64,000 nucleotides of DNA from Methanomassiliicoccales archaeon (GCA_040768245.1 JAXGNA010000005.1:36716-100715), one strand, 5' to 3'. Shown: positions 22,318 through 59,237, counted from the first letter of the stretch. The notes: a model not told the origin generated them from the letters alone. Numbers and translations: made by a program.

Positions 22318-25300
22318 GTGGGCATGAGACGTTCAGCGGTAGCCGTGCTGTTATTCCTATTCGTCATCAGCGCGGTCGCTCCATCCCTAGCGGTCCCTTC
22401 CTGGCCTACCGAACCGACCGCCCTCTATGAACATACTGGCATCGATGATGGGTCATCACTTTTCGACGAGTTCGCTCAGACCCTGATCATACCGGGAGAG
22501 CCGAGGGATAGTGTGCTGGCCGACCTGAACAACGACACGCGCGAGGACCTTGCGGTCATTTACAAGGGCTCGACCTCCCTGGACGTGTTCTTTTTCGACC
22601 CGGCGATCGGGTTTTCGAACTCCAACCGGACCAGGATCGCGCTCCCTTACGAGATCACGGACCTGGCCATCGGGGACATGGATGGAGATACCAAACTGGA
22701 CATCGTGCTCGTTCTCAACGTCACCGCCCTCACCAACCTGGTCGTGCTATACCAATCCTCCAACTTCCAGATGGGAAGTTCATTCACGAAGCCCATCGAT
22801 TACCGCCCGTTGACGGTGAACGTGGGCAATTTCACTGGGTCCTCCCTACCGGAGATCGCGTTGACCGTAATGGCGGCCGGTGGTCCCAGGTTCCTGATCT
22901 ATGAGTGGTCGATCGGCACATACCAGTATTGGGTCGAACCATTGCCTCTGAATCCCGCACCTTTGAGCATGGTCAGGCCGAGCATGACCGAGATAGGCGA
23001 CCTGAACCAGGATGGGTTGAACGACCTGGTGATCGGAGACCGTACCTCAGGAAAGGTGGCCGGGTTCCTTAACCCGGGACATGGGGCGTGGGGTGCAAAC
23101 TATAGCACGTCCCGAAACCTTCCAACGACCCTTATGCTGGGCGACCTGGATGGCGACGGCTCATTGGAACTCACTGTGGCCGAAGAGGGTTTGGAGGACC
23201 CCCTGGTGACCGTTTGGGACTGCACGCCGACCGGATTCAGCGCCATCACGAACATTGATACAATATCGACGATGAACTCGCTCGCCGCCTTGAAATTGAA
23301 CACCGACCTAAGAATGGAGATAGCCGCCGCTTCGGCTGACAATAATGATATCAGCATTTTCAAGGCCGCCGCCTCCGGTAGCCTATCCTACCCGGAATCC
23401 ATCAATTTCCCTGTGCCAAGAATGCCGGTGAGCATCTTCGCCGCGGACATGAACGGGGATGGCGAAGATGATATCTTGCTTACATCCTGCCCATCGAACG
23501 GCTACGGCGCGATCTCCGTATACCTCCAGAGCGGGGACACGCTGTCCAACGCTAATGACAATCAACCGCTTCCTGTCACCCAGGTCAACTCGGCCACCGT
23601 CGGCGACATGGATGGGGACGGAGGCAACGAGATCATCACCTATGACGGATCGGGGCCGATCATATGGTTCTCCAGGGAAGGCTTCCCGGAGCTGAGGTGG
23701 GTCCCCGCCCCGCTCAACGTTTCGGTCATGGAATGCGTGGACCTGAACGGGGACGGGCGAGAGGACCTGGTCATGGTCCAATCGGCTCCGGCGCAGGTTA
23801 CTGTCTGGTATGGCGATCCGGATGTGCTGAAAACCGATCACGCGATAACCAGCGTCTCCCTGGCATATTCGATGTCCCAGGGACTGTCGATGACCGCGGG
23901 GGACCTGGACGGTGACGGTGACCTGGACCTGGCGATCGGAGGGGACGGGGCGGTGGACATTTTCTGGAATTCCGGGACCGCTGCGGCATACTCTCAAGGG
24001 CAGCGATTCACGCTTACGCTTGCCGGGGCTTCAGTGACGTCATTGACCACCATCCGGATACAGGGATCCGCCCACAATGACGCCCTGCGGGACCTGGCCC
24101 TGGTCAACGGGACAACTTCGAGAACGGAGATCTACTTCCAGCAGACGACAGGGGCCAGGTTCGTTACCAGTGACCGCTTGTTGCTAACGCCTGCGGCCGG
24201 CCTGTTCGGTTTGACCGCAAAGGACCTGAGCGGGGACGGCAGAGAGGACCTGTTGGCCGGGATCTCTCAGGCGTTGCGCCTCCTGGTCCAGAACCCTGGG
24301 TACACCAAGGGATTCCTGGATGGACAGACCCCGGAGGACCTGCCGGTGCCGGAAAGGCCCCGTTCTTTCACCATAGGCGATCTGGACGATGACGGTGCAC
24401 CGGAGATCGGTCTGATGACCGCCAATTCCACGATCGAGGCTTATGAGAGGACCGGCATGGGTTTCGTGCTCTTGACCAGGCAGACCGCAGGCTCCTCCCC
24501 GGCATTCCTTTCATTGGCGGACATGGACGATGATGGCAAGCAGGATATCGTGGTGGTCTCCTCCTTGTCACGGACGACCTCCATTTACTACCAGAACAAC
24601 TTCGCCCCGACGGCCAAGGGTTCCGTGGACGGCAGCGGACATCTGGAAGGGGATTACCTGACGTTCAACGCCACCCTCAGTACGGATGGCCGGTCCGATC
24701 GGGACCGCCTTACCTACATCTGGGACTTCGGGGATGGAGGCACCAATACCACCACCGAGAAGCTGACCACGCATCGTTACCTGCGCAACGATACCTTCCA
24801 AGTGGTCCTGACCGCAAGGGACCCCGCCGGCCTGACGAACCATACATCCTTCCAGGTGAGCGTGGGCGATAAAGGACCCTCGGCCTCGCTGACCTATGAT
24901 GGGACGACCTTGTTCGAAGGAACCCCGGTCCAGTTCAGGGACAACAGCACCTCCTTTCCGGATACGATAGACAAATGGCGATGGGCGTTCGGGGACGGAG
25001 GTACGTCTGAGCTAAGGAACCCCTCGCACACCTATGCCCATAACGGCAATTACACCGTCACCCTGACGGTCTGGGACAAGGATGGGACGAACGATACTGC
25101 CAGCATCGCGGTCATCATCTTAGATACCGCCCCCACCGCCCAGTTCTCCTTTTCCCCTTCATCGCCTTTGGAGGGACAGAACGTCACCTTCACTGACGCT
25201 TCCTCGCCCGGGGTCGACAGCATAGAGAGCTGGTACTGGGACTTCGGGGATGGCCGAACTTTGACCGCTTACGGTGGGTCGGTGCAGCACATCTATACCG

Positions 25301-26742
25301 ATAACGGGACCTACCTGGTGAGCCTGACCATAACCGACGCGGACGGTAGCAACGATACCATCACCAGAACCGTTGTGGTCCTGGACACCAGCCCGGTCAT
25401 CTCGAGCCTTTACGTGGTCGGCGGTTCCACCTCGTTCAAGGAGGGGGACGACGTGGAGTTCAAGGTGAACGCCTCGCCGCTGTTCGGGACGATCGTCCGT
25501 TACCAGTGGGATTTCCAGACCGAGACCTTCCAGGCAGATGAGACGACGAACGTGTACACGGCCATCCACTCCTACAACTTCTCGGGAACGTATCGCGTGA
25601 CCGTGCGGGTCTGGGACATCGATAGCTACACCGATACCTCCATTCAGATCACCATAACCGATCCAGCCCCCGTGCCGGATTTCACTGCGTCCACCAACGC
25701 CGCCAACCGTACCGTTTCCTTCTCCGCCGCCCTGACCCTGGACACGGAGAACGACATGCCCTTGCTGGAGTACCGCTGGTTCTTCGGTGACGGGGAGCAG
25801 AGCGAGTGGTCCAATTCGTCCAAGGCCAAACATACCTATGATTTGGATGGGATCTACTCCGTGCGTCTAGAGGTGCGGGACGACCACAACCCCGCGGTCA
25901 TGCGCACCAAGAACGTGACCATCGACCTTCTTCCGCCAATAATATCCATGGACGATCCGGTGCTGAAGGCTATCGTCGGCGAGCCCACCCTGGTCCGGGT
26001 CAACGTGACCGACCTGGTGGGCATCGGCTCGGTCAAACTGGAGTACACCATCGGAAATGTCACTCGTACCGTGGTAATGACCCATGAGGGCGGCGGCATC
26101 TACTTCGCCCAGATCCCCGCGCAGAACCGCACCATGGAGCTTCAGTATCGCATCATCGCCGAGGACATGGCAGGTCACTCCGCCACCACCGAGCAGTTCA
26201 CCCTTGCCCTGGAATACGAGGACCCCTCGCTGTTCATCTACACGTCCCTGATACTGCTGACGGCCTTCCTGGTCATCATAATCTACCTGTTCCTGTCCCG
26301 GCCGATCGTGGACGAGGTGTTCGTGATGTACCATGATGGAACGCTCCTAGCGCATCAGACCAGGCGCCTCAAGCCGGGGATGGATGACGAGATATTGGGC
26401 GGAATGCTCATCGCCCTGCAGAACTTCGTGCGCGATTCGTTCAAGGACGAGAACTCGACCGTGCTGAGGCGCATGGACTTCGGAGAACGGAAATTGCTGG
26501 TGGAGCGCAAGGACGACTTCTTCATGGCCGTGGTGCTCAGCGGCAAGCGCGCCGGGAACGCCGCGCAGCGTATGCTCAGGGTCCTCGACAACATCGAGGA
26601 GGGCTACGCCCCGGTGCTCAGGGAGTGGGACGGAGACCTGGAGAAGGTGCGCGGCATAAGGGATGAAACGAAGCCGATGTTCTCCCGCGCCAACCCCCTG
26701 GACCTTCTGAAACGCAAGGAAGGGGAAGACGATTCGATTTAA
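22318..26742 (+). CDS. Giant surface protein: FG-GAP/VCBS repeats, PKD modules, one TM helix, cytoplasmic Roadblock/longin-like tail
   Basis: Signal/anchor MRRSAVAVLLFLFVISAVAPSLA. At least 11 Asp-rich FG-GAP-type loops (GDMDGDTKLDIV, GDLNQDGLNDLV, ADMNGDGEDDIL, VDLNGDGREDLV, GDLDGDGDLDLA, ADMDDDGKQDIV ...). Five PKD-like modules (WDFGDGGT.., WAFGDGGT.., WDFGDGRT.., WDFQTETF.., WFFGDGEQ..). TM helix LFIYTSLILLTAFLVIIIYLFL (about 26224-26295). 148-aa tail. Confidence 0.85.
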   Translation: MGMRRSAVAVLLFLFVISAVAPSLAVPSWPTEPTALYEHTGIDDGSSLFDEFAQTLIIPGEPRDSVLADLNNDTREDLAVIYKGSTSLDVFFFDPAIGFSNSNRTRIALPYEITDLAIGDMDGDTKLDIVLVLNVTALTNLVVLYQSSNFQMGSSFTKPIDYRPLTVNVGNFTGSSLPEIALTVMAAGGPRFLIYEWSIGTYQYWVEPLPLNPAPLSMVRPSMTEIGDLNQDGLNDLVIGDRTSGKVAGFLNPGHGAWGANYSTSRNLPTTLMLGDLDGDGSLELTVAEEGLEDPLVTVWDCTPTGFSAITNIDTISTMNSLAALKLNTDLRMEIAAASADNNDISIFKAAASGSLSYPESINFPVPRMPVSIFAADMNGDGEDDILLTSCPSNGYGAISVYLQSGDTLSNANDNQPLPVTQVNSATVGDMDGDGGNEIITYDGSGPIIWFSREGFPELRWVPAPLNVSVMECVDLNGDGREDLVMVQSAPAQVTVWYGDPDVLKTDHAITSVSLAYSMSQGLSMTAGDLDGDGDLDLAIGGDGAVDIFWNSGTAAAYSQGQRFTLTLAGASVTSLTTIRIQGSAHNDALRDLALVNGTTSRTEIYFQQTTGARFVTSDRLLLTPAAGLFGLTAKDLSGDGREDLLAGISQALRLLVQNPGYTKGFLDGQTPEDLPVPERPRSFTIGDLDDDGAPEIGLMTANSTIEAYERTGMGFVLLTRQTAGSSPAFLSLADMDDDGKQDIVVVSSLSRTTSIYYQNNFAPTAKGSVDGSGHLEGDYLTFNATLSTDGRSDRDRLTYIWDFGDGGTNTTTEKLTTHRYLRNDTFQVVLTARDPAGLTNHTSFQVSVGDKGPSASLTYDGTTLFEGTPVQFRDNSTSFPDTIDKWRWAFGDGGTSELRNPSHTYAHNGNYTVTLTVWDKDGTNDTASIAVIILDTAPTAQFSFSPSSPLEGQNVTFTDASSPGVDSIESWYWDFGDGRTLTAYGGSVQHIYTDNGTYLVSLTITDADGSNDTITRTVVVLDTSPVISSLYVVGGSTSFKEGDDVEFKVNASPLFGTIVRYQWDFQTETFQADETTNVYTAIHSYNFSGTYRVTVRVWDIDSYTDTSIQITITDPAPVPDFTASTNAANRTVSFSAALTLDTENDMPLLEYRWFFGDGEQSEWSNSSKAKHTYDLDGIYSVRLEVRDDHNPAVMRTKNVTIDLLPPIISMDDPVLKAIVGEPTLVRVNVTDLVGIGSVKLEYTIGNVTRTVVMTHEGGGIYFAQIPAQNRTMELQYRIIAEDMAGHSATTEQFTLALEYEDPSLFIYTSLILLTAFLVIIIYLFLSRPIVDEVFVMYHDGTLLAHQTRRLKPGMDDEILGGMLIALQNFVRDSFKDENSTVLRRMDFGERKLLVERKDDFFMAVVLSGKRAGNAAQRMLRVLDNIEEGYAPVLREWDGDLEKVRGIRDETKPMFSRANPLDLLKRKEGEDDSI

Positions 26743-26760: not shown

Positions 26761-27489
26761 GTGGGCGGAATGATCACCGTGGAGCAGGCGGTCATAGTGC
26801 TAGTGCTTTGCGCGGCGCTCTCTGCGCTATCGTGGAAGCTGGGGCTGTTGACCGCCGATGGCAGCTTGGCCTCGTTCGGAGTGGGCATGGTCCTCGGCGT
26901 CTTGGGGGGCATAGGGTGGCTCCTGCTGCTGGTCCTCTTCGCCTTCATCGGGTTCCTGGTCACCAAGTTCAAGATGGAACTGAAGATCAAGAAGGGGGTG
27001 CAGGAAGGCAAGAAGGGAGAGAGGAACTACCGTAACGTCCTGGCGAACGGAGCGGTGCCCATGGCCATCGCCTTGTTGACGTCCCTGGTGGGCTGGGAGG
27101 GCGAGCTTCCCGCGTTGATCTACATGAGCGCCGTCTGCGTCGCCGCCGCGGACACGACGGCAAGCGAGCTGGGCGTGCTCTCCGACCGGACGTACATGAT
27201 CACCAATTTCAAGCGCGTGCCGCCGGGAGTGGACGGCGGGGTCTCGCTTTACGGAACGGGATGGGCCATCGCCGCCTCGGCGTTCGCCGCCCTGGCCGGA
27301 TGGATAGTGATACTGGGAACCTGGCCTTCGCTCCTGCTCCTCATACCGGTATCCATGGGCGTCCTGGGATGCTTCATCGACAGCGTGATCGGCGCTACGC
27401 TGGAAACGAGGGGATGGGTGACCAAGCTGTGGAACAACATCACCTCCATGGCCTTGGGCGCGGCCATCGCCCTGCTCGTTCTTTTATAA
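26761..27489 (+). CDS. Integral membrane protein, DUF92/TMEM19 (TIGR00297-like) family
   Basis: 242 aa, multi-pass. Motifs KKGERNYRNVLANG, AAADTTASELG and GVDGGVSLYGT are typical of DUF92. Confidence 0.7.
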   Translation: MGGMITVEQAVIVLVLCAALSALSWKLGLLTADGSLASFGVGMVLGVLGGIGWLLLLVLFAFIGFLVTKFKMELKIKKGVQEGKKGERNYRNVLANGAVPMAIALLTSLVGWEGELPALIYMSAVCVAAADTTASELGVLSDRTYMITNFKRVPPGVDGGVSLYGTGWAIAASAFAALAGWIVILGTWPSLLLLIPVSMGVLGCFIDSVIGATLETRGWVTKLWNNITSMALGAAIALLVLL

Positions 27490-27537: not shown

Positions 27538-27996
27538 TTGGCGGAAAAGGAAGCCTTCGGCGCGTACCTGGTCTTGAAGGGCAACGCCCATTCCGCGTCC
27601 GAATACCTTCGCGAACTGGTCAGACAGGGCTTCGACCCCATCCTGGTGTCCCCGGTCGATGCGGAATTGCCCGCCGATCCCGAGATAGAGGTCCTGGAAC
27701 CGGAGAGGTCCGACCGGGAGGTCCATACGGGGAACAAGGTCCAGCTCCTGCGTGCCCTCCTGGCGCACATTCAGAGAGGTGAGAAGAAGGCGGTGGTCAT
27801 CCTCGACCTGCAGGTGCTTAAGCAAGGTGGAGGATTCCACGACCTCACCGACCTCATAGGAAGGTTGTACGAAGAGGCCTGTGTGAACCGGGGCCTGATC
27901 CTCATGTTCGCAGATCCCACTGGATTCACCAATCAGGAGATGGCCTTCCTGGAAAGGGAGACCTCGGTCATCGAGCGACCGGAGCAGCTTTCCTAG
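27538..27996 (+). CDS. Stand-alone DUF835-like (degenerate RecA/KaiC-fold) protein
   Basis: GAYLVLKGNAHSASEYLRELVRQGFDPILVS ... KKAVVILDLQVLKQGGGFHDLTDLIGRLYEEACVNRGLILMFADPTGFTNQEMAFLERE follows the DUF835 pattern. No Walker A and no membrane domain. Ends with TAG. Confidence 0.6.
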   Translation: MAEKEAFGAYLVLKGNAHSASEYLRELVRQGFDPILVSPVDAELPADPEIEVLEPERSDREVHTGNKVQLLRALLAHIQRGEKKAVVILDLQVLKQGGGFHDLTDLIGRLYEEACVNRGLILMFADPTGFTNQEMAFLERETSVIERPEQLS

Positions 27997-28046
27997 GGGC
28001 TGAGAAACAGTTATATACAATGGTCATTTTCACTGGGCTCAAGGAT

Positions 28047-28169
28047 GGTTTGACGGCCATCGCGGCGGGGATACGCCTGGTCTCGTCCGATCCCAGAAGC
28101 TAAGCCCGCCCGCGTTCCCTGTGTTACTGTGGTGCGCGAGCCCACGGGAAGCCCGGAACGCTGTCAGCC
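28047..28169 (+). rRNA. rrf: 5S rRNA, copy 1
   Basis: GGTTTGACGGCCATCGCGGCGGGGATACGCCTGGTCTCGTCCGATCCCAGAAGCTAAGCCC...GGGAAGCCCGGAACGCTGTCAGCC. Helix I pairing TTGACGGC/GCTGTCAG, conserved CCGATCCCAGAAGCTAAGCC loop C/helix III region, T-rich tract downstream. Confidence 0.85.
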
Positions 28170-28282
28170 TCCTTACTTTTCATCTCATTTTTTCTATAGA
28201 TGTATTCTCATTCAGCGTTCCCGCCGTTCCAGAAAAATGAAAATTTGGGAAAAGGTTTGGAACGAAAGGGTTTGCTGCTCAC

Positions 28283-31200
28283 CTAGGGGTGTATACCGCC
28301 CTCGTTGTACTCGGCCAGCAACTCCGCCAGGTCGTGGGCCATCTGCTGGTCCTCTGCCGAGAGCGGGTCACCGATCTGGTGGACTTCCAGGAAGTCCGTG
28401 GCATCCTCGATGACGCCGACGTACTTCGCCGGGGCCCCCCACATCTCATCGTTCAGCATGGCGGCCATGTACTGGTGCGCCAGGACGATGATCATATCGC
28501 CCGCGGGCGGGGTCCAGAACACCTCCATCCAGGTCATGCCGGAATCGAAGAACATGGCGTCAGGGCTTATTCCGACCCATGCATCCCCGTGGTTCTTCCA
28601 GTATCCCTGGGTGGCGGCGTAGTACCAGATGTCCACGCACACTCTAGCCGTATCGTTCACCCACATGTCCCACTCGACCGGCCCGGCCTGTCCGTAGGCG
28701 GTGGCAACGTTGCAGATCTTGTCGCCCTCATAGTCCTCAGGTATCGTGTACTCGTAGGTGAACTCCCACCACTCTCCGACCTCCAGGATGCCATCCTCGT
28801 ATCCTTCGTAGTCATGGAGCCAGAAGGTCTCATTGAGCAGGGAGTCGTACACGTGCACATTGTACAGAGGCACGTTGCCGCAGTTGGTGACGTTCACCGT
28901 GTAGATCAGTTTACCGCCGGGTATCGCCATTCCGCTGTGGTTGCCCTCATTGTAATCGGTCAGGACTTCCGCCAGCATCAAGGCGTACTCACGGTCCTCG
29001 CCCTGCGGGTTGCTGCCTACGGGGTGCTCCAGCAGGAACTCCTCGGCATCCTCGATGAATCCATCGTAGACGTCCGGGGCGCCCCACTTCAGGTCGTTCA
29101 GCTTGGCCGCCAGGTACTGGTGGGCCAGGATGATCGAGGCATCTCCCTTCGGAGCGGTGTTGAACACCTGGATGAAGCTCAGTCCACCAGGGAACTTAGT
29201 GAAATCAACCGCCTGCGTGCCGCCTATCGAGAACGGTGCATACGGGCAGATCTCCTCCCAGGCGCTCAGGTGGTTCTTCCAGTATCCCTGGGTGTGCGAC
29301 TGATACTCCTCCTCGACGTCCCACCACACGCTCTTGGTCACGTTGATGCACGGCAGCACCTCGAAGTTGGTGAAGTTGAAGGAGTACACAGCTCCGCTGG
29401 TGACCGGTCCGAACTCATGCTCGGTGTCGGTCGTCGGCAGCCATCCGACTATCTCCTCTTCACCTACCTTGTACTTACCAGGCCCGAGATCGAACCAGGT
29501 GTGGCAGCCGCAGGTTCCGGTGTAGTTGGTGTCGATTAGGTCCCAATCCTCGCCGTTCCACTTGTACAGGTAGACCTCCCAACCTTCGATCGGGGAGTCG
29601 TCATCGCTCAGTCCGTCACCGGTGAGGTCCTCAAGCTTGCAGACGGTGATGGCCACCAGCTTGAAGTTCAGGAAGGTGACGGATTCGCACCCACCTGACT
29701 CATCGATGGTAACCATCTGAGTGACACCACCATTGGTGTTGGCCCAGCCATCAGGCAGAACCTCCTCGACGGTGTAGCTGCCCAGCTCCAGGTCCTCGAA
29801 GCAGACCTTTCCGTCCGCTCCAGTGACGCCGGAGTCGATAGGCTCCTCACCCTCGGAGATAGCGCCCATGTACAGGTTGATAGTGACGCCGGATACCGCC
29901 GGTTCGCCCTCGTCCCAGTTACCGTCGCCGTTAAGATCGTCGTACTTGAACACGCAGATCTTGCCGAGGCGGATGTTCAGGAAGGTGACCACTTCGGTTT
30001 CCCCAACAACATCGACGGTGACCTCCTGGGTCAGAGAACCATCGGTGTACCAGCCTTCGAGCATGATCTCCTCGACCGTGTACAATCCGAAATTGAGACC
30101 ATTGAAGCAGACCTTTCCGTCCGCTCCAGTGACGCCGGAGTCGATAGGCTCCTCACCCTCGGAGATAGCGCCCTTGTACAAGTTGACAGTGACGCCTGGC
30201 ACCGCCGGTTCTCCCTCGTCCCAGTTACCGTCGCCGTTAAGATCGTCGAATTTGTATACGCATATATTACCAAGAGGATAGTTGTAGAAGGTCATCGCAA
30301 TCTCTTGGTCGGCGGTGGTCAAAGTAATGTATTTCGGCTCCGCACTAGTATAGTTCGAATTTGGCGCGGATACTTCAACCATCTTGTAATTGCCGAGCAT
30401 CAGGTTCTCCCAGAACTCGGTATATCCATCGGAACCGGTGACCTTGGTGCCCAGAGAGTTCCATGCTCCGTTCTGGTAGAACAGTTCGAACGTCCAGCCA
30501 ACACCCGGAGAACGGTCGGTAGTGGTGGTCAGATCACCATCGTTATCGATGATCTTGTGCGCCCTTATCTTCCCGGGCATGGAGTTACCGAAATCGATCC
30601 CGGTGTGGACGAGCGCTGTGCCATTAACTGTTACGGTGTACGTAGCGTTGGTCGGATAGGTCTGGGTCCACCCTAGTTTCTGAACTTCGGATATAATGTA
30701 TATTCCCCACGGGACCTGAGAGAAACTGTAGCTCCCATCGGATGCCGTGGTGGTTTCCATATGGATCGGGAATCCGCCAAAGGACGTTCCATTGAGTATT
30801 ATGGTCCAATTGGACAGACCACTCTCACCTGGATCCCTTATGTGGTTAGAGTTGGCATCGTTGAACTTCATTCCGGAGATGCTTCCCGCAGCATATGTGA
30901 CAGGGATGCTCTGGGTCTGTGCGCTCGTTCCAGTGAACACCAGGGACAGAGCTACCTGCAGGGACGCCCCTGGGAAGTAAGCCGCACCGTAGTAGTAGCC
31001 CATCGGTACGCCCTGCCCAGGAGTGGTCTGTACATTGCTGTAGAATGCCGTCTCCGCCACATGAGCCTGGAAGTAGATGTATATCGATGTTCCGACCGGC
31101 ACGGTGAAGAAGCCTGCCGAGAACATGTAGTAGTTCTGTATCGTCTGTCCGCTCATTCCGAAGAACTGGTTCGATAATGTCGGTACGATCGGGTCAACCA

Positions 31201-31378
31201 CGTTCATGGTGTTGGTGACCCCTTCGGATTGGGCAGGGAACTGTACCGTCCAGTCCGCCCTGTTGTATCCCCACAGAACTTCAGCATCTATACCATATGC
31301 TGTTTTTCCCTTGTTGAAATGATCATATACGGAATCAAGTTGTGGTGACGAATTATTCGTTCCTGTGTCGTGCGTCAA
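28283..31378 (-). CDS. Large adhesin-like surface protein with SdrD-B/Cna-B-type modules and duplicated C-terminal modules (body of gene; see 31439-31597)
   Basis: 1031-aa ORF beginning at a TTG. Several modules of the form kFnD.NgNG..D.GE.G..GvTv.L...G....tTTd.dG.Y.F..l..G.Y.V.E, e.g. ICVYKFDDLNGDGNWDEGEPAVPGVTVNLY...GADGKVCFNGLNFGLYTVEE. Two TQGYWKNH...LAHQY.AA.LN..WGAP..Y.G.IEDA..FL modules. Confidence 0.8.
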   Translation of the reverse strand: MTHDTGTNNSSPQLDSVYDHFNKGKTAYGIDAEVLWGYNRADWTVQFPAQSEGVTNTMNVVDPIVPTLSNQFFGMSGQTIQNYYMFSAGFFTVPVGTSIYIYFQAHVAETAFYSNVQTTPGQGVPMGYYYGAAYFPGASLQVALSLVFTGTSAQTQSIPVTYAAGSISGMKFNDANSNHIRDPGESGLSNWTIILNGTSFGGFPIHMETTTASDGSYSFSQVPWGIYIISEVQKLGWTQTYPTNATYTVTVNGTALVHTGIDFGNSMPGKIRAHKIIDNDGDLTTTTDRSPGVGWTFELFYQNGAWNSLGTKVTGSDGYTEFWENLMLGNYKMVEVSAPNSNYTSAEPKYITLTTADQEIAMTFYNYPLGNICVYKFDDLNGDGNWDEGEPAVPGVTVNLYKGAISEGEEPIDSGVTGADGKVCFNGLNFGLYTVEEIMLEGWYTDGSLTQEVTVDVVGETEVVTFLNIRLGKICVFKYDDLNGDGNWDEGEPAVSGVTINLYMGAISEGEEPIDSGVTGADGKVCFEDLELGSYTVEEVLPDGWANTNGGVTQMVTIDESGGCESVTFLNFKLVAITVCKLEDLTGDGLSDDDSPIEGWEVYLYKWNGEDWDLIDTNYTGTCGCHTWFDLGPGKYKVGEEEIVGWLPTTDTEHEFGPVTSGAVYSFNFTNFEVLPCINVTKSVWWDVEEEYQSHTQGYWKNHLSAWEEICPYAPFSIGGTQAVDFTKFPGGLSFIQVFNTAPKGDASIILAHQYLAAKLNDLKWGAPDVYDGFIEDAEEFLLEHPVGSNPQGEDREYALMLAEVLTDYNEGNHSGMAIPGGKLIYTVNVTNCGNVPLYNVHVYDSLLNETFWLHDYEGYEDGILEVGEWWEFTYEYTIPEDYEGDKICNVATAYGQAGPVEWDMWVNDTARVCVDIWYYAATQGYWKNHGDAWVGISPDAMFFDSGMTWMEVFWTPPAGDMIIVLAHQYMAAMLNDEMWGAPAKYVGVIEDATDFLEVHQIGDPLSAEDQQMAHDLAELLAEYNEGGIHP
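29798..30251 (-). repeat. In-frame 306-nt tandem duplication inside the adhesin gene
   Basis: A 70-nt block is identical at 29798-29867 and 30104-30173 (offset 306 nt = 102 codons). High identity continues for roughly 80 more nt. Confidence 0.8.
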
Positions 31379-31438
31379 GATATACTTGAATCCTATTAGA
31401 TCTCCTTCGTGATAACCAGCCAGGTTTCCATTGACCTA

Positions 31439-31597
31439 GTTCATTTGGACAGGGTCCCAAGCATATAATTCCGAGGTCCACTTGTCTCCTGCGGCCTCCA
31501 CACCTGTGGGTATGGCAACCAGCATTGCAGAAGAGACCATTATAAATGCCAAAATAAGGACAATGGTCTTCGTGAACCTGCGGGTAGTTACACCTAT
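31439..31597 (-). CDS. Upstream in-frame segment of the adhesin gene encoding its signal peptide, separated from the body by one TAG (31436-31438)
   Basis: Translation (ATA)GVTTRRFTKTIVLILAFIMVSSAMLVAIPTGVEAAGDKWTSELYAWDPVQMN-TAG-VNGNLAGYHEGDLIGFKYI-(TTG 31378). Same frame as the 1031-aa ORF, with the upstream in-frame stop TAA at 31622-31624. The only canonical starts in this segment are TTG 31552 and ATG 31540/31525, all inside the h-region. Confidence 0.5.
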
Positions 31598-32039
31598 GTT
31601 AGTATTCGTATAGTTCCCCCCTTAAGCGCTTACTAAGATGTTTTTTATCGGGGTGCGATCCCCCTAAGCTCGACATCGGTGAGAAGTAGGTAAAGCCGGC
31701 ACGTCTGTCGACTTGTAAGTCGGTATCGTTTTTGATATCGAGTTATTGTATGTTATTGCCTTGTAGTTGCGGTATATTAACGTTTTTGGAACAAATGTGA
31801 AATCGTAAATGATAATGTACATCGTCTAATCTTGATGCTGGATGGTTAAAATTAGGCGTGATAACGAGTGTCATTGATAAAGATTATTTTTTCGATCATG
31901 AATAATTTAGTATGATTATTGTAATTGATATCGACAAGGCAAAATTAGCATTAAATATTATAGTATATATTATAATAAATAGAATAATAACTCAATCCTA
32001 AAGATTAAATATCATATCCATAATGCCTTGAATCAGAAT

Positions 32040-32162
32040 GGTTTGACGGCCATCGCGGCGGGGATACGCCTGGTCTCGTCCGATCCCAGAAGCTAAGCCC
32101 GCCCGCGTTCCCTGTGTTACTGTGGTGCGCGAGCCCACGGGAAGCCCGGAACGCTGTCAGCC
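32040..32162 (+). rRNA. rrf: 5S rRNA, copy 2 (identical to copy 1)
   Basis: A 125-nt block at 32038-32162 is base-for-base identical to 28045-28169. The upstream flank differs (AT-rich) and so does the downstream flank. Confidence 0.85.
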
Positions 32163-32354
32163 ATTCTAATTCTTTATCTCCTTCTCGAATACCAGATTTT
32201 TAATCGCTGTGTTCTATCAATGCAATAGGATTAATACCAATCAGGAACCTAGTCCTCTCCGGAGTTGAAGGTGGTATAGCTGGACGCGGACCAGATCTTC
32301 CTGATCGCCCTTCTTGTCGTTCTCGGCATAGTCATCTATCTCGAGCTAAGGTTC

Positions 32355-33080
32355 ATGCGCTCCCGCAACAAGGAGTATATCGAGCGGATGATGGACAAGG
32401 ACGATGCGTACAACACCCTCGCCACCACCAAGGCCATCGCCGCCTCCCTCAAACAAAAGGGGAGGGACACCAAGGAAGCCGACATGGTCATGATCCAGGC
32501 CGATAATGCTTACAAACGCAACAACTACATCGCTGCGAGGGACCAGGCCAAGCGTGCCCGCGAACTCTTGATGAAGGCGCCTATGTTGGAGGTCGCCGCT
32601 CCCAGGTCTGCCGAGACCGTCTCAGAAGAGCAGCCCGAAGAGGAGCATAAGATGGTGCACGAGGTCAAGAAGCTCGAGCCGCACATGCTCGAGTCGCGAT
32701 TTATCATCAATGCCTGCCGTGGTAGGATCGAGACCGCTGAGGGCTCAGGCAAGGACGTCCTCAAAGCCAAGGACGCTCTGGCCAGGGCGGAAAAGTGCTT
32801 TGAGGATAAGAAATACGATGAGGCCCTGCGCGAAGGCCTTCGGGTCCGGAAGATGCTTGGTGAAGAACCGTCGGAACCGGAAGCGGTCAAGGAGGCGGTG
32901 ATCGTCAAGGTCCCCAAGCCAGAGAGGAAGTGCGAGAAGTGCTCCAATACCATCAGCAACGATGATGTTTTCTGCCGCAAGTGCGGCGCGCCGGTGGTAG
33001 TAAAACGCGCCTGTGCCTATTGCCGCGCCGATCTGGAGACTGGCGACATATTCTGTCCAAAATGCGGCCGCAAGGCCTGA
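32355..33080 (+). CDS. Coiled-coil protein with C-terminal double zinc ribbon (probably membrane-anchored; true start likely near 32265-32280)
   Basis: C-terminus CEKCSNTISNDDVFCRKCGAPVVVKRACAYCRADLETGDIFCPKCG, with Lys/Glu/Ala-rich helical repeats before it. The in-frame upstream sequence encodes the TM helix IFLIALLVVLGIVIYL (see finding). Confidence 0.6.
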   Translation: MRSRNKEYIERMMDKDDAYNTLATTKAIAASLKQKGRDTKEADMVMIQADNAYKRNNYIAARDQAKRARELLMKAPMLEVAAPRSAETVSEEQPEEEHKMVHEVKKLEPHMLESRFIINACRGRIETAEGSGKDVLKAKDALARAEKCFEDKKYDEALREGLRVRKMLGEEPSEPEAVKEAVIVKVPKPERKCEKCSNTISNDDVFCRKCGAPVVVKRACAYCRADLETGDIFCPKCGRKA

Positions 33081-33133: not shown

Positions 33134-33904
33134 ATGATCCTGGTGAAATTGGGCGGAAGCGTCATAACCGACAAGGGCCGGTACCGCACCTTCGATCCGG
33201 AGACCGCCGGTCGGCTGGCGGAGGAGATCGCCAGGACCGGGCAGGACGTGATGGTCGTTCACGGCGCCGGGTCCTTCGGGCACATGCTGGCCAAGGAGCA
33301 CCGGCTCCATCTGGGCATAACCGATGATTCTCAATTGCTGGGTGCGTCGCTGGTCATGTCCGATGTGCGCGAGCTTGACCTGGAAGTATGTCGAATAATG
33401 TCCGCCAAGGGCCTGCGGGCGGTTCCGTTACCGCCGGCCTCCTGCGCGGTGATGAGCGATGGCCAGCTGAAACATCTGGATCTGAACGTCTTCAAGTCCT
33501 ACCTCGAGCTGAGCATGGTCCCGGTGACCTTCGGCGATGTCGTCCGGGATGAGGTGCGAGGGCTGAGCATATGCTCAGGAGATCAGCTCATGGCCGCCCT
33601 GGCCAAGGAGTTCCGGCCTAGCAAGGTGATATTCGTTACCGACGTCGATGGCGTGTTCACCGCCGACCCCACGCAAGATCCCCAGGCGGAACTGATAGGG
33701 ACGGTCGACCAGAAGGTGCTTGATTCTTTACCACGAACCGAACGGAACGTGGACGTCACCGGAAGCATATTCGCCAAGATACGTTACATGATCGACATGG
33801 CGTCGCTGACCGGTGAATGCCTTGTACTGAACGGAAAAGTGCCCGGAAGGCTGGAGGCGGCCGTCCGCGGTGACGATGTGATCGCCTCCAGGGTGATTTC
33901 ATGA
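33134..33904 (+). CDS. ipk: Isopentenyl phosphate kinase
   Basis: Starts MILVKLGGSVITDK (amino-acid-kinase fold), with VVHGAGSFGH and FVTDVDGVF motifs. The 5' extension of track ORF 32981 overlaps the previous gene and is rejected. Confidence 0.85.
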   Translation: MILVKLGGSVITDKGRYRTFDPETAGRLAEEIARTGQDVMVVHGAGSFGHMLAKEHRLHLGITDDSQLLGASLVMSDVRELDLEVCRIMSAKGLRAVPLPPASCAVMSDGQLKHLDLNVFKSYLELSMVPVTFGDVVRDEVRGLSICSGDQLMAALAKEFRPSKVIFVTDVDGVFTADPTQDPQAELIGTVDQKVLDSLPRTERNVDVTGSIFAKIRYMIDMASLTGECLVLNGKVPGRLEAAVRGDDVIASRVIS

Positions 33905-42755: not shown

Positions 42756-42830
42756 GGGGCCGTGGGGTAGCTTGGTCCATCCTTCGGGCTTTGGGAGCCT
42801 GAGACTCCGATTCAAATTCGGACGGCCTCA
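42756..42830 (+). tRNA. tRNA-Pro (anticodon UGG), no encoded CCA
   Basis: Acceptor GGGGCCG/CGGCCTC, D loop with A14, G18G19 and A21, anticodon stem CGGGC/GCCTG with loop TTTGGGA (TGG at 42792-42794, G37), T arm TCCGA-TTCAAAT-TCGGA, discriminator A. Confidence 0.9.
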
Positions 42831-42913
42831 CTCATTCCTATTATAATTGTTCATTTTTATTGGTACCAAAATTCATCAAATTGGATACTTTTATATCCCC
42901 GAAATGAAAAGCG

Positions 42914-51212: not shown

Positions 51213-51324
51213 CCCGACTTAGCTCAGTCTGGCTAGAGCGGCTGACTGTAGTGGGATCCCGGCTTGCCGGTCCTCAGCCGCCGATATCAGCAGGTGCCCG
51301 GTTCAAATCCGGGAGTCGGGACCA
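51213..51324 (+). tRNA. tRNA-Tyr (anticodon GUA) with a 34-nt intron at 37/38, CCA encoded
   Basis: C1-G72 acceptor CCCGACT/AGTCGGG (archaeal Tyr identity pair), D arm GCTC-AGTCTGGCTA-GAGC. Anticodon stem GCTGA/TCAGC with loop CTGTAG|intron|A (GTA at 51248-51250). T arm CCCGG-TTCAAAT-CCGGG, A73, CCA at 51322-51324. Confidence 0.85.
51252..51285 (+). other. tRNA-Tyr intron (boundaries inferred)
   Basis: TGGGATCCCGGCTTGCCGGTCCTCAGCCGCCGAT lies between G37 and A38. It contains the internal hairpin CCGG-CTTG-CCGG. Confidence 0.6.
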
Positions 51325-55844: not shown

Positions 55845-56786
55845 ATGGCGAACGCCAACATTGAAGAGTTGCCTGGAGTAGGACCCGCAACTGCCGATAA
55901 GCTCAGGGAAGCCGGATACACAAACCTCATGACCATAGCGGTGGAGTCGCCCAAGACATTGGCCGACGCCTGCGACATAGGGGAGGCCACCGCGATCAAG
56001 ATCATCGATGCCGCCAAGAAGGCCGCCGACGTGGGCGGTTTCGAATCGGGCGACATCATATTCGAGAGGAGGAAGAACCTCGACCGGCTGACCACCAGTT
56101 CAAAGGCTTTCGATGAACTCCTGGGCCATGGCCTGGAATCCCAGGCCATACACGAGTTCTACGGGGAGTTCGGGAGCGGCAAGACCCAGATATGCTTCCA
56201 GTTGGCCGTGAACGCCACCCTGCCCAAGGAGAAGGGCGGATTGGATGGCGATGTGGTGATAATCGACACCGAGAACACCTTCCGCCCGGAAAGGATCGTG
56301 CAGATGGCCAACGGCATGGGGGCGGACCCGGAAGAGGTGCTCAAGCGCATCCACGTCGCCCGGGCCTATAACTCCTCGCACCAGATGCTGCTGGTGGAGA
56401 AGGCCGCGGACGTGAGCAAGCTACACCCGGTACGCCTGTTGATAGTCGATTCCCTGACCGCCCATTTCCGCGCCGAGTTCGTCGGCCGGGGTACGCTGGC
56501 GGAAAGACAGGGGCTGCTGAACAAGCACATGCATGAGCTGCTGGCCTTCGCCGAGGTCAACAACGCGGTGATCGCCGTTACCAACCAGGTTTCCGCGAAG
56601 CCGGACGCCTTCTTCGGCGACCCCACCCGTCCGGTGGGCGGCCACGTGGTCGGGCACGCCTCCACCTACCGGGTGTATCTGCGTAAGAGCAAAGGTACTC
56701 GCAGGATCGCCAGGTTGATCGACTCACCGGACCGGCCGGAGGCCGAAGTGGTCATCAACGTGACCGAGGAAGGCGTCAGGGACTGA
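55845..56786 (+). CDS. radA: DNA repair and recombination protein RadA
   Basis: N-terminal Hh[19 protein letters not shown], Walker [13 protein letters not shown], Walker B LLIVDS; 313 aa. Confidence 0.95.
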
Positions 56787-56794
56787 TCGCCCTC

Positions 56795-57790
56795 ATGCCC
56801 CTTACCCCGGTCCTTTTCGAGCTGTCGGGGGAGCACCCGACCCTGCCTGCAGCGGAAGTGCTGGCCTGCCTTCGGGCGGAGTCCCCTGGCTCCCGACAGC
56901 TGGCCCTGGGTCCGGGATACCTTCTGGCGGCGTGCGATCTCGGTTCCCTTCCCCAGGTGCACGGACGCCTGGGCCTGACCCACCGCTTCGGTCGTTATCT
57001 GGCCTCGTGCGAGCTCGATGAACTGGAACCGGTGTCCTCCCGGCTCGAGCTGCCTTCGGGAAGCGTCTGCGTCCGGGCCCGGAAGGTGGAGGGGTCGTTC
57101 CCTGAGGTGAACACCCACGAGGTGGCCAGGAAGGTCGGGAAGGTCCTCTCCAGGGAACATGAGATCGATCTGACCTGCCCGGAGCTTACGGTCAGAGCGC
57201 TCCTGTCGGAGAAGGTTCACCTTTTCATCTCCGAGCATGAGATCGACCGAAAGCAATTCGACCGCCGCAAGGTGGCCGAAAGGCCGTTCTTCTCCCCTAT
57301 CTCTCTGCACCCCCGCTACGCCAGGGCGTTGATCAACCTTACCGAGGCGAAGAGGGGAGATAGGGTACTGGACCCCTTCTGCGGCACCGGCGGAATAGTC
57401 CTGGAGGCGGCATTGCTGGGAATGAGGGCCTTGGGCTCGGACATCGACCCGCAGATGGTGGAAGGATGCCGGCGGAATCTGGAGCACTTCGGCGTCGAGG
57501 GGGAGGTGCAGGTGGCCGATATCGGGGACGTCCCGTCCATGTTCGGAAAGGTGGGAGCAGTGGCCACCGATCCACCGTACGGAAGGGCGGCCAGCACCAA
57601 GAAGGAGGACATCGATGTTCTTTATCGTCGGGGGATCAAAGCCTCGGCGGAAGTGCTGTCCCCAGGGTGCAGGGCGGGCATCGTCCTTCCCCGGGAAGCA
57701 TTGAGCGGAGAGATGGAGCTCCTGGAACTGCATAGGCAGAGGGTGCATCGCTCGCTGACCCGTCACTACCACATATTCATTCGACGGTGA
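56795..57790 (+). CDS. trm11: THUMP-domain tRNA (guanine-N2) methyltransferase (Trm11/Trm-G10 type)
   Basis: SAM motif I VLDPFCGTGGIVLEA and motif IV ATDPPYG, preceded by a THUMP-like N-terminal half. Confidence 0.75.
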   Translation: MPLTPVLFELSGEHPTLPAAEVLACLRAESPGSRQLALGPGYLLAACDLGSLPQVHGRLGLTHRFGRYLASCELDELEPVSSRLELPSGSVCVRARKVEGSFPEVNTHEVARKVGKVLSREHEIDLTCPELTVRALLSEKVHLFISEHEIDRKQFDRRKVAERPFFSPISLHPRYARALINLTEAKRGDRVLDPFCGTGGIVLEAALLGMRALGSDIDPQMVEGCRRNLEHFGVEGEVQVADIGDVPSMFGKVGAVATDPPYGRAASTKKEDIDVLYRRGIKASAEVLSPGCRAGIVLPREALSGEMELLELHRQRVHRSLTRHYHIFIRR

Positions 57791-59237
57791 ACTTGAGGAG
57801 ATGTTCATCGCTCTGATATACGGACTGGTCACTGTTGAAGGACTTCATATCGATGAGCAGGTCCCAGACCCCGGCCTCTTCCTCATCGGGTACGCTGACC
57901 TTGATGATGACGACCATCCCCTCGTCGTAAGGGACCAGTACCTCCAGCAGGTCGGTGGCGTTATCCTCGTCCCCTCCTTGCAGGAACAGTGAGACGCTCC
58001 AGCCGTGGGGCACCTGCATGGCGTTCAGCTCCATGGTGCTATTGGTGTTCCCGGTGTTGTTGACCAGCATGGTGACGTAGACGGTCGAGCCAGCGAGCAT
58101 GGTGGTCTCGTTGCCACCGGGAAGCTCCACGTTGAAGGAGTGGTCGGGAGCGATCTCCACCAGCGGGATGGGGGAGAAGGTGATCAGGAGTATGGCCATG
58201 GTCACCACTCCCAGCACCTTGGTCTTGTTGCTCAACTTGCTCACGTCGTTCAGGGGGGCGGGGTGACGCAGCCCCAGAAACAGGATCAGCATGGCGAAGA
58301 TGAGCCAGCCGGTGTAGTAAAGTCCTAGCACCAGCAACAGGCCCACCGTGGCGTAGCTGAGATATTTGGCCTTGTCACCAAGCAGCCCGCGGGCCACGTG
58401 CCCGCCGTCCAGCTGGCCGGCGGGGAGCAGATTAATGGCGGTGACCAGAAAGCCCACCCAAGCGGCGAACGCCGTGGGGTGCAGGGTGACGTTCTCCGGT
58501 AACGGCACCAGGAGCGAAAGAAGCGCGTACAGCGGCTGTATGGATATGGCCACGGCGCCGGCGTCCCCCACCATGCCGCTGCTGGGATCGCCCATGGAGG
58601 TCAGCCAGAGTCCCAGGAACGAGACGGGTATGGTCACCAGCAGGCCGCCTATCGGACCGGCGGAGCCGATGATCACCAGGGAGCGTCGGTCCGGGATGGG
58701 GTCCCGCATGGAGATGAAGGCGCCGAAGGTCCCTAACGGCGGGATGGAAGGTATGAAGAAAGGGAGCGAGGCGGCCACGCCGCACTTCTTGGCCGCGAGA
58801 TAATGGCTGAGCTCGTGCGTGCCGAGTATGGTCATCAACGGTACAGCGAAGAACAGCGCGCCCCACAGGTAGTTCTCCGGTCGAGAGAGATCGTTGTTGC
58901 CACCGTAGGAGGCCCATAGGACCGCGCCGGCGATTATGGTGGTGATGAGCGTGACGATCAGCAGGATGCTGTTCAGCCAGAGGCCCCGGGTCCTGAGCTC
59001 GGGCCGCCGCACCACGTTTATGGTGTACTCGCCGCCATGGTAGCGAAGCACCGGTACCAGCATGCGCTCCTTGAACTCGTTGCGCAGCTGGTCGAACTTA
59101 CCCTGGAGGCTGGACTGCTCGGGGGTGATGAAGAAGGTGAGGGAATCGTAGCTCACCCGCACGTCGTAGACCGGGAAATATTTGGATATCGCGGCCTTGA
59201 CGCTCTCCACCTCGGCCGCGGGTCCGGGGGTGGCCAT
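57777..59237 (-). CDS. Site-2 protease (M50 family) with C-terminal extracytoplasmic domain
   Basis: HELSHYLAAKKCGV (HExxH), multiple TM helices, second motif region NLLPAGQLDGGH. Confidence 0.8.
   Translation of the reverse strand: MATPGPAAEVESVKAAISKYFPVYDVRVSYDSLTFFITPEQSSLQGKFDQLRNEFKERMLVPVLRYHGGEYTINVVRRPELRTRGLWLNSILLIVTLITTIIAGAVLWASYGGNNDLSRPENYLWGALFFAVPLMTILGTHELSHYLAAKKCGVAASLPFFIPSIPPLGTFGAFISMRDPIPDRRSLVIIGSAGPIGGLLVTIPVSFLGLWLTSMGDPSSGMVGDAGAVAISIQPLYALLSLLVPLPENVTLHPTAFAAWVGFLVTAINLLPAGQLDGGHVARGLLGDKAKYLSYATVGLLLVLGLYYTGWLIFAMLILFLGLRHPAPLNDVSKLSNKTKVLGVVTMAILLITFSPIPLVEIAPDHSFNVELPGGNETTMLAGSTVYVTMLVNNTGNTNSTMELNAMQVPHGWSVSLFLQGGDEDNATDLLEVLVPYDEGMVVIIKVSVPDEEEAGVWDLLIDMKSFNSDQSVYQSDEHLLKFTVE

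Follow-up and report, generated by a model that had tools for sequence, protein, structure and literature searches.

Two 5S rRNA genes and the gene between them

The 64-kb window examined in the present study (the whole stretch of DNA that was analysed, to which all coordinates refer unless another locus is named) belongs to a Methanomassiliicoccales archaeon. Methanomassiliicoccales genomes, assembled from sediment, sludge and digester metagenomes, supply the nearest matches of its isopentenyl-phosphate-kinase-like (IPK) protein and its DUF92 protein, at 89-91% identity; no 100% match turned up in the protein or genome collections. Near the middle of the window lie two 5S rRNA genes in direct orientation, separated by 3,868 bp that hold a minus-strand gene for a large adhesin-like protein. 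Positions 28045-28169 equal positions 32038-32162 base for base over 125 nucleotides (nt), and the first flanking bases to differ are g at 28044 versus a at 32037 on one side and t at 28170 versus a at 32163 on the other; a repeat search recovered the same pair as 128 nt at 99% identity, starting at 28042 and 32035. Both copies match the Rfam 5S model RF00001 from model position 1 to 120 with 82 bits, against a gathering score of 38 (E = 6.7e-16), and the minimum-free-energy (MFE) folds of both copies with their flanks adopt the Y shape of 5S rRNA, with its three-helix junction. Direct comparison thus upholds what a preliminary description of this DNA had stated about the identical block, its nature as 5S rRNA and the divergence of the flanks at the very next base on either side. 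The features of the pair and of the interval that it encloses are as follows.

28049-28169, plus strand: 5S rRNA gene, copy a (Rfam RF00001, 82 bits, full length)
28283-31426, minus strand: adhesin-like gene, the part downstream of an in-frame TAG (1,047 codons plus a TAG stop; Pfam domains)
31427-31429, minus strand: in-frame TAG that interrupts the adhesin frame, the codon after 'DPVQMN'
31430-31609, minus strand: N-terminal part of the adhesin, with the signal-peptide-like segment TTRRFTKTIVLILAFIMVSSAMLVAIPTGVEAAG and a possible ACG start at 31609-31607
31610-32004, no strand assigned: AT-rich intergenic region (33-44% GC), the putative 5' leader and promoter of the adhesin, divergent from 5S copy b
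32042-32162, plus strand: 5S rRNA gene, copy b (Rfam RF00001, 82 bits, full length)

The interval is occupied by one long minus-strand frame (28283 to ~31609) and an AT-rich stretch (31610-32037, 33-44% GC). Its average GC content of 53%, compared with ~58-62% in the flanks, agrees with the difference in composition reported earlier. The preliminary description had likewise listed only a minus-strand adhesin gene and an AT-rich leader between the repeats; this inventory is correct, except that the TAG at 31427-31429 had been missed.

Conservation of the locus in related genomes

Related loci (given L numbers below) were gathered from species-representative genomes via IPK, from metagenome contigs by DUF92 alignment, and by exact-protein look-ups, after which the 5S genes and the window proteins were mapped onto them. 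Loci with a DUF92 protein at least 69% identical to that of the window (69-91%) were treated as the ingroup, and those at 42-60% as the outgroup. The genes that flank the 5S pair and anchor the comparison are the following.

26761-27489, plus strand: DUF92 membrane-protein gene (Pfam PF01940, E = 2.7e-53), syntenic in all related loci
27538-27996, plus strand: DUF835-like gene directly upstream of 5S copy a (weak match to PF05763, 27.8 bits, below the 33.1-bit cut-off)
32355-33080, plus strand: double zinc-ribbon protein gene (Pfam DZR and Zn_Ribbon_1), directly downstream of a 5S gene in ingroup and outgroup
33134-33904, plus strand: IPK-like gene (AA_kinase), the synteny anchor, followed by the IDI2 and GGPP synthase (GGPPS) genes

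The gene order FG-GAP/PKD, DUF92, DUF835, 5S copy a, adhesin-like gene (minus strand), 5S copy b, zinc-ribbon, IPK, IDI2 and GGPPS was seen in every ingroup locus that reaches past a 5S copy (18/18). Four of these span both copies, which lie 3.8 kb apart in L003, 5.4 kb in L004, 6.5 kb in L009 and 8.1 kb in L102; in the remaining 14 the adhesin gene adjoins the one 5S copy that is reached. In all five complete intervals, including that of the window, the adhesin is the only long open reading frame (ORF) between the copies, and no integrase, recombinase or mobile-element gene was found between the repeats in any of the five. A deletion junction, with DUF835, a single 5S gene and the zinc-ribbon gene in direct succession, occurs in 0 of the 18 ingroup loci, which comprise genomes as well as metagenome contigs. 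Three short-read contigs (L002, L007 and L098) end inside a 5S copy; since the 5S pair is a repeat, it accounts for a recurrent contig break in short-read assemblies of the clade.

Outgroup loci carry DUF92, in some cases DUF835, one 5S gene, the zinc-ribbon gene and IPK, and have no adhesin at this site. They include a 2.45-Mb contig (L099), GCA_014361295.1 (L100) and the Thermoplasmata contigs L011, L043, L049, L065, L072 and L086-L088. The outgroup's single copy of the 5S gene has flanks of the copy-b type (GAAUGG...AUUC). These outgroups, with one 5S gene and no adhesin, indicate that the single-5S state is ancestral and that, at its base, the ingroup gained a module consisting of a 5S gene and the adhesin on a single occasion. 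Relatives with one 5S gene and no adhesin, for which the preliminary description had advised a search, thus exist, but only at a distance, while the 18 ingroup loci share the layout of the window. An old and stable arrangement, which that description had named as evidence against its own proposal, is likewise what we find, except that what lies between the copies is no housekeeping gene but in each case the same adhesin, which evolves fast.

As for the neighbours themselves, the position of the DUF835 gene is kept in L004, L009, L017, L097 and L102 as well as in the single-5S outgroup L100; in L003 (979-1140) the DUF835 gene upstream of copy a seems truncated, the match covering only its first 54 amino acids (aa). 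Just upstream of DUF92 lies an FG-GAP/PKD repeat surface-protein gene of 1,474 aa (22318-26742, plus strand), which is syntenic in ingroup and outgroup and is therefore a second large surface protein and a stable neighbour of the locus.

Identity of the 5S copies within and between genomes

The 121-nt 5S gene is identical in the window and in L003, L004, L005, L017, L018, L020 and L097, which represent different species with flanking DNA 78-92% identical. As the same 5S sequence is found in different species, the identity of the two copies in the window is uninformative about how recently they arose. Two further genomes are more telling: both copies in L009 carry G75T, T76G and G107C, and both copies in L102 carry C70T, T72C, G75T, T76G and C106T. 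Copies a and b are identical to each other in 5/5 genomes, and orthologues differ between genomes. Three more haplotypes are common to pairs of contigs of which one holds copy a and the other copy b (L019/L006, L025/L010 and L028/L008), and each pair probably represents one species.

Each copy has a promoter region and immediate flanks of its own, and these are orthologous copy by copy between species, from which it follows that the duplication is older than these species. Given an old duplication, substitutions present in both paralogues would have spread by gene conversion, and it is well established that prokaryotic rRNA paralogues evolve concertedly in this manner. The perfect identity had earlier been attributed to a recent duplication or to gene conversion: recency finds no support, as relatives share the layout and the 5S gene is identical even between species, and conversion is favoured by L009 and L102.

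Flanking sequences of the two 5S genes

Each copy has its own putative promoter, leader and trailer, in agreement with the promoter-like upstream and T-rich downstream sequences that had been described for both.

28011-28017, plus strand: TATA-like box TTATATA of copy a, read from the sequence, a presumed promoter element
28041-28048, plus strand: 5' leader of pre-5S a, AAGGAUGG, pairing with the 3' trailer so that the MFE fold extends helix I
28170-28194, plus strand: 3' trailer UCCUU of copy a, pairing with the leader, then T-runs, a likely terminator
32005-32011, plus strand: TATA-like box TTAAATA of copy b, kept in copy-b orthologues, a presumed promoter element
32035-32041, plus strand: 5' leader of pre-5S b, AGAAUGG, pairing with the 3' trailer
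32163-32185, plus strand: 3' trailer AUUCU of copy b, pairing with the leader, then T-rich sequence

In both copies the TATA-like box is centred ~27 nt ahead of the leader, where the flank helix starts, and GTTATATA or GTTAAATA is kept at equal distance in all copy-a orthologues. Conserved TATA-like boxes together with the T-runs lead us to predict that both copies are transcribed. A scan for sigma-70 promoters and intrinsic terminators is not meaningful for an archaeon, and its counts were near shuffle expectation.

The leader and trailer of each copy pair with each other, lengthening helix I by at least 5 bp in the MFE fold. A flank helix of at least 5 bp is present in 26 of the 27 copies examined, and the pairing amounts to 5-6 bp in all 15 copy-a sequences. 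The two types differ in a compensatory manner, with AAGGA/UCCUU in the a-type and AGAAU/AUUCU in the b-type, and the stem reads CGCGAAU/AUUCGCG in the outgroup L100, is an 8-bp version in L008 and has a repaired bulge in L025. This coordinated divergence of leader and trailer points to a pre-5S processing stem. In L001 (5769-5917), the 5S gene at position b, beside the zinc-ribbon gene, has the a-type stem UUAGGA/UCCUAA behind a b-type promoter, possibly left by a conversion tract that reached a few bases past the gene.

The adhesin-like gene

Pfam identifies SdrD_B (2.8e-34, three stretches), SpaA prealbumin-like (3e-27, three stretches), CarboxypepD_reg and DUF7507 domains in the adhesin-like protein, so that it has the repeated immunoglobulin (Ig)-like and prealbumin-like domains by which beta-sandwich repeat surface proteins are recognised. 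At the DNA level the gene contains tandem internal domain repeats of families D1, D2 and D4. Its N-terminus is conserved and resembles a signal peptide, with a charged n-region, a hydrophobic core and 'VEAAG', and no C-terminal anchor was recognised in the protein. The product is predicted to be a secreted, adhesin-like surface protein, with a putative role in adhesion. A C-terminal domain of ~110 aa ('...GYWKNH...') occurs twice at 28286-29300 (minus strand), corresponds to no Pfam family, and has homologues in many bacteria, including Pontibacter, Nannocystis and Nocardioides. A search with this C-terminal module returned mostly unrelated bacterial proteins that share the ~110-aa domain and was uninformative as to the origin of the adhesin.

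The start codon can be placed only provisionally. In the adhesin frame, none of the codons ATG, GTG and TTG precedes the conserved n-region of the signal peptide, and the sequence TAA-GGGGGG-N6-ACG, with the ACG in frame (31607-31624 in the window, minus strand), is common to L003, L004, L005 and L097. Protein-level conservation and a 9-nt in-frame indel begin just past that ACG, which at 31609-31607 may be a non-canonical start codon. The AT-rich region upstream contains conserved blocks in the window, L005, L004 and L003 and two hairpins, at ~31650-31664 and ~31693-31714 (minus-strand sense), that are conserved in five species with three covarying pairs; a permissive Rfam search of the AT-rich leader (E <= 1) gave no match.

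Across relatives the protein ranges from ~1,000 to >3,175 aa (2,931 aa in L097 and >3,175 aa in L103). Aligned at the nucleotide level with L003 and L004, the interval is a mosaic that falls to 14-32% identity where repeats have been gained or lost and rises to ~82% elsewhere, whereas the flanks are 78-92% identical. This pattern of conserved flanks and a mosaic interval, together with the range of lengths, indicates a surface protein that is orthologous but changes fast, as opposed to a foreign cassette gained and lost repeatedly. The 5' part of the gene is 64-85% (mostly 77-85%) identical to L005 and only 14-78% to L003 and L004, in a comparison in which flank identities are roughly equal (78-92%).

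In-frame stop codon and disrupted copies

At the site of the in-frame TAG, four orthologues (L003, L004, L005 and L097) have TGG, encoding the tryptophan of the motif W-x-NGNLAGYHEGD. The change from TGG to TAG is most simply read as a nonsense mutation that truncates the protein just after the signal peptide and probably inactivates the adhesin in this genome.

The codon might instead encode pyrrolysine (Pyl), the adhesin being an intact Pyl-containing protein. Pyl machinery is common in Methanomassiliicoccales, and some members have many additional genes with in-frame TAG (PMC4153887), but some members of the order are reported to have no Pyl at all (PMC6147122). In the window TAG is not depleted as a stop; it is an ordinary stop codon that ends ~12 of 58 ORFs (~20%), some of them Pfam-confirmed genes. 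The ORFs of a CCA-adding enzyme and of an AMP-binding enzyme end in this way, as does that of the adhesin, and no pyl or methylamine methyltransferase genes were present among the window ORFs checked. The tryptophan codon in the orthologues and the frequent use of TAG as a stop lead us to reject pyrrolysine as the principal reading of this codon, and we regard an intact Pyl-containing adhesin as improbable.

In L102 (GCA_026394395.1; 11508-18991) a frameshift divides the adhesin orthologue into frames of 887 and 1,643 codons; either the clade contains a second disrupted copy or the assembly is in error within the repeats. Taken together, the nonsense change in the window and the frameshift in L102 suggest that such inactivation as is observed is mutational and not recombinational.

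Elsewhere in the window, at 56366-57832 on the minus strand, a single TAG is all that separates two ORFs, of 388 and 99 codons, that share one reading frame. The pair was considered as a Pyl-type methyltransferase and rejected, neither ORF having a Pfam match; the TAG junction could reflect read-through, a nonsense mutation or chance.

Origin and maintenance of the arrangement

The explanation that we favour, and consider probable, is that the 5S genes form an old pair that has been passed on stably, that selection and gene conversion keep the two identical, and that they enclose a hypervariable adhesin. The ancestral locus would have consisted of DUF92, DUF835, one 5S gene, the zinc-ribbon gene and IPK. 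In the common ancestor of a clade of genus or family level, a second 5S unit and a minus-strand surface-protein gene would have landed between DUF835 and the old 5S gene, and the resulting layout would then have been passed on vertically. Each 5S gene would form a separate small transcription unit with a TATA box, a leader that pairs with the trailer, and T-runs; the pairing extends helix I into what is probably a processing stem. The 5S bodies would stay identical, under strong purifying selection and through short-tract gene conversion, while their flanks evolve separately, and the adhesin would evolve rapidly by gain and loss of domain repeats and by mosaic divergence. In the present genome, the change from TGG to TAG right after the signal peptide would probably have inactivated it.

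Several points weigh against this explanation. Copy a could be either a new duplicate or the relocated second 5S gene that other Methanomassiliicoccales keep elsewhere, and the assemblies compared are consensus sequences, within which rare deletion variants of the population may be hidden. The homogenisation of the copies by gene conversion is deduced from sequence patterns, and the proposed roles of promoter, terminator and processing stem are read from consensus and covariation. Some full-length adhesin could also be made if the organism decodes UAG as pyrrolysine.

The preliminary description had proposed that recombination between the identical repeats deletes and re-inserts the adhesin cassette, providing on/off surface variation. 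Direct, identical 125-nt repeats 4 kb apart can physically recombine, archaeal geneticists routinely obtain pop-outs between direct repeats, and the gene between them does encode a surface protein. However, the deletion junction is absent from all 18 related loci, no recombinase lies between the repeats, and the arrangement has been kept across DUF92 identities of 69-91%. Pop-out would moreover cost the cell one 5S gene and release a circle without evident replication or re-integration function, which would make the event one-way, and the disruptions actually seen are a point nonsense change (window) and a frameshift (L102) rather than deletions. We consider such a switch very unlikely. Still less credible is that the 5S gene was duplicated, either recently in tandem or artificially in assembly, as the perfect identity of the copies might suggest. 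The same structure, with both copies spanned alike, is present in four independent assemblies of other species (L003, L004, L009 and L102), the flanks are copy-specific and orthologous across species, the 5S gene is identical between species too, and short-read contigs break at the repeat (L002, L007 and L098) rather than duplicate it. The comparative data refute this explanation, including the misassembly that had been named earlier as a possible objection.

The origin of the module allows somewhat more latitude. A circle carrying a 5S gene and the adhesin could have recombined into or next to the chromosomal 5S gene in the ancestor of the clade. In keeping with this, outgroups have exactly one 5S gene at the corresponding site and lack the adhesin there, the 5S copies form the exact boundaries of the added DNA, and the GC content of the intervals is lower (52-57% vs ~60%); the b-type flanks of the outgroup further suggest that copy b was the resident and that copy a came with the adhesin. 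Yet none of the five complete intervals contains an integrase or mobile-element gene, a crossover within the 5S gene would give hybrid flanks whereas the 5' and 3' flanks of each copy are mutually complementary, and a rearrangement that brought the usual second 5S gene of the order to this place explains the data equally well. We regard an origin by integration as unlikely. The broader proposal that a 5S gene served here as an integration scaffold is not sustained, both copies being complete, each with its own TATA box and complementary flanks, and no partial att-type copy being present at the locus. A related possibility, to which we attach a similarly low probability, is that the invariant 5S copies act as universal homology arms by which homologous recombination swaps whole adhesin alleles between strains or species, much as capsule and O-antigen loci are exchanged between conserved genes on either side, or that the module first arrived by 5S-targeted integration. 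The uneven identity of the adhesin 5' part (L005 versus L003 and L004) against roughly equal flanks is a hint of allele swapping.

Relation to known systems

The rRNA genes of Methanomassiliicoccales are scattered and unlinked, with 5S, 16S and 23S copy numbers of 2-1-1 (Borrel et al. 2014, PMC4153887, Table 1 and accompanying text), and two 5S copies are also given for the genomes MALP (Speth & Orphan 2018, PMC6147122) and MXMAG1 (PMC7824343). The parts of these three papers that report copy numbers do not state the position of both 5S copies. An Rfam search of the whole 64 kb found no 16S, no 23S and no rRNA match other than the two 5S genes, which fits unlinked rRNA genes. The present locus resembles those described in the relevant parts of PMC4153887 and PMC6147122 in coming from the same order, in having 5S genes unlinked to 16S and 23S, and in the number of two copies; it differs from what is reported there in that the copies are in direct orientation, ~4-9 kb apart, around an adhesin-like gene and in one subclade, other members of the order having just one 5S gene here. 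The local arrangement of a 5S pair around an adhesin appears to be undescribed so far, yet it belongs to well-known kinds of phenomenon.

One of these is concerted rRNA evolution, with which the locus shares paralogues that are identical within a genome and substitutions that appear in both at once (L009 and L102). It differs in that the homogenised tract is only ~125 nt, comprises a single 5S gene and ends at copy-specific stem flanks. Genomic islands at tRNA and tmRNA genes are similar in that a stable-RNA gene, present as direct repeats, encloses an accessory surface-protein gene that distant relatives lack. Here, by contrast, there is no integrase, both repeats are complete genes that appear to be independently promoted, and the module is fixed in the clade (18/18 loci) rather than patchy, being absent only where DUF92 identity is 60% or less. 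The adhesin itself is comparable to the adhesin-like proteins of gut methanogens (Methanobrevibacter smithii and Methanosphaera; PMC11532034), which are likewise large, repeat-rich, predicted to be secreted and highly variable in length, with Ig-like or prealbumin-like beta-sandwich domains. It departs from them in its combination of SdrD_B, SpaA, CarboxypepD_reg and DUF7507 with two copies of the unclassified C-terminal 'YWKNH' domain; its part in adhesion is a prediction.

For annotation, an identical 5S pair in these archaea is to be treated as conserved and expected, neither as a mobile island nor as a misassembly, and it explains why short-read contigs frequently break at this locus. The locus opens no new mechanism. 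It offers a clean, small example of concerted evolution within ~125 nt, bounded by flanks whose complementarity has to be preserved, and a fixed chromosomal site that holds a fast-diversifying surface protein, which could serve as a marker for strain typing or for host or particle interaction in environmental Methanomassiliicoccales.

Other RNA genes in the window

Two tRNA genes were each reported by one program. ARAGORN places a tRNA-Pro at 42756-42831 that is not on the Rfam gathering list, and Rfam gives a tRNA match at 51213-51321, unreported by ARAGORN, whose length of 109 nt suggests an intron.

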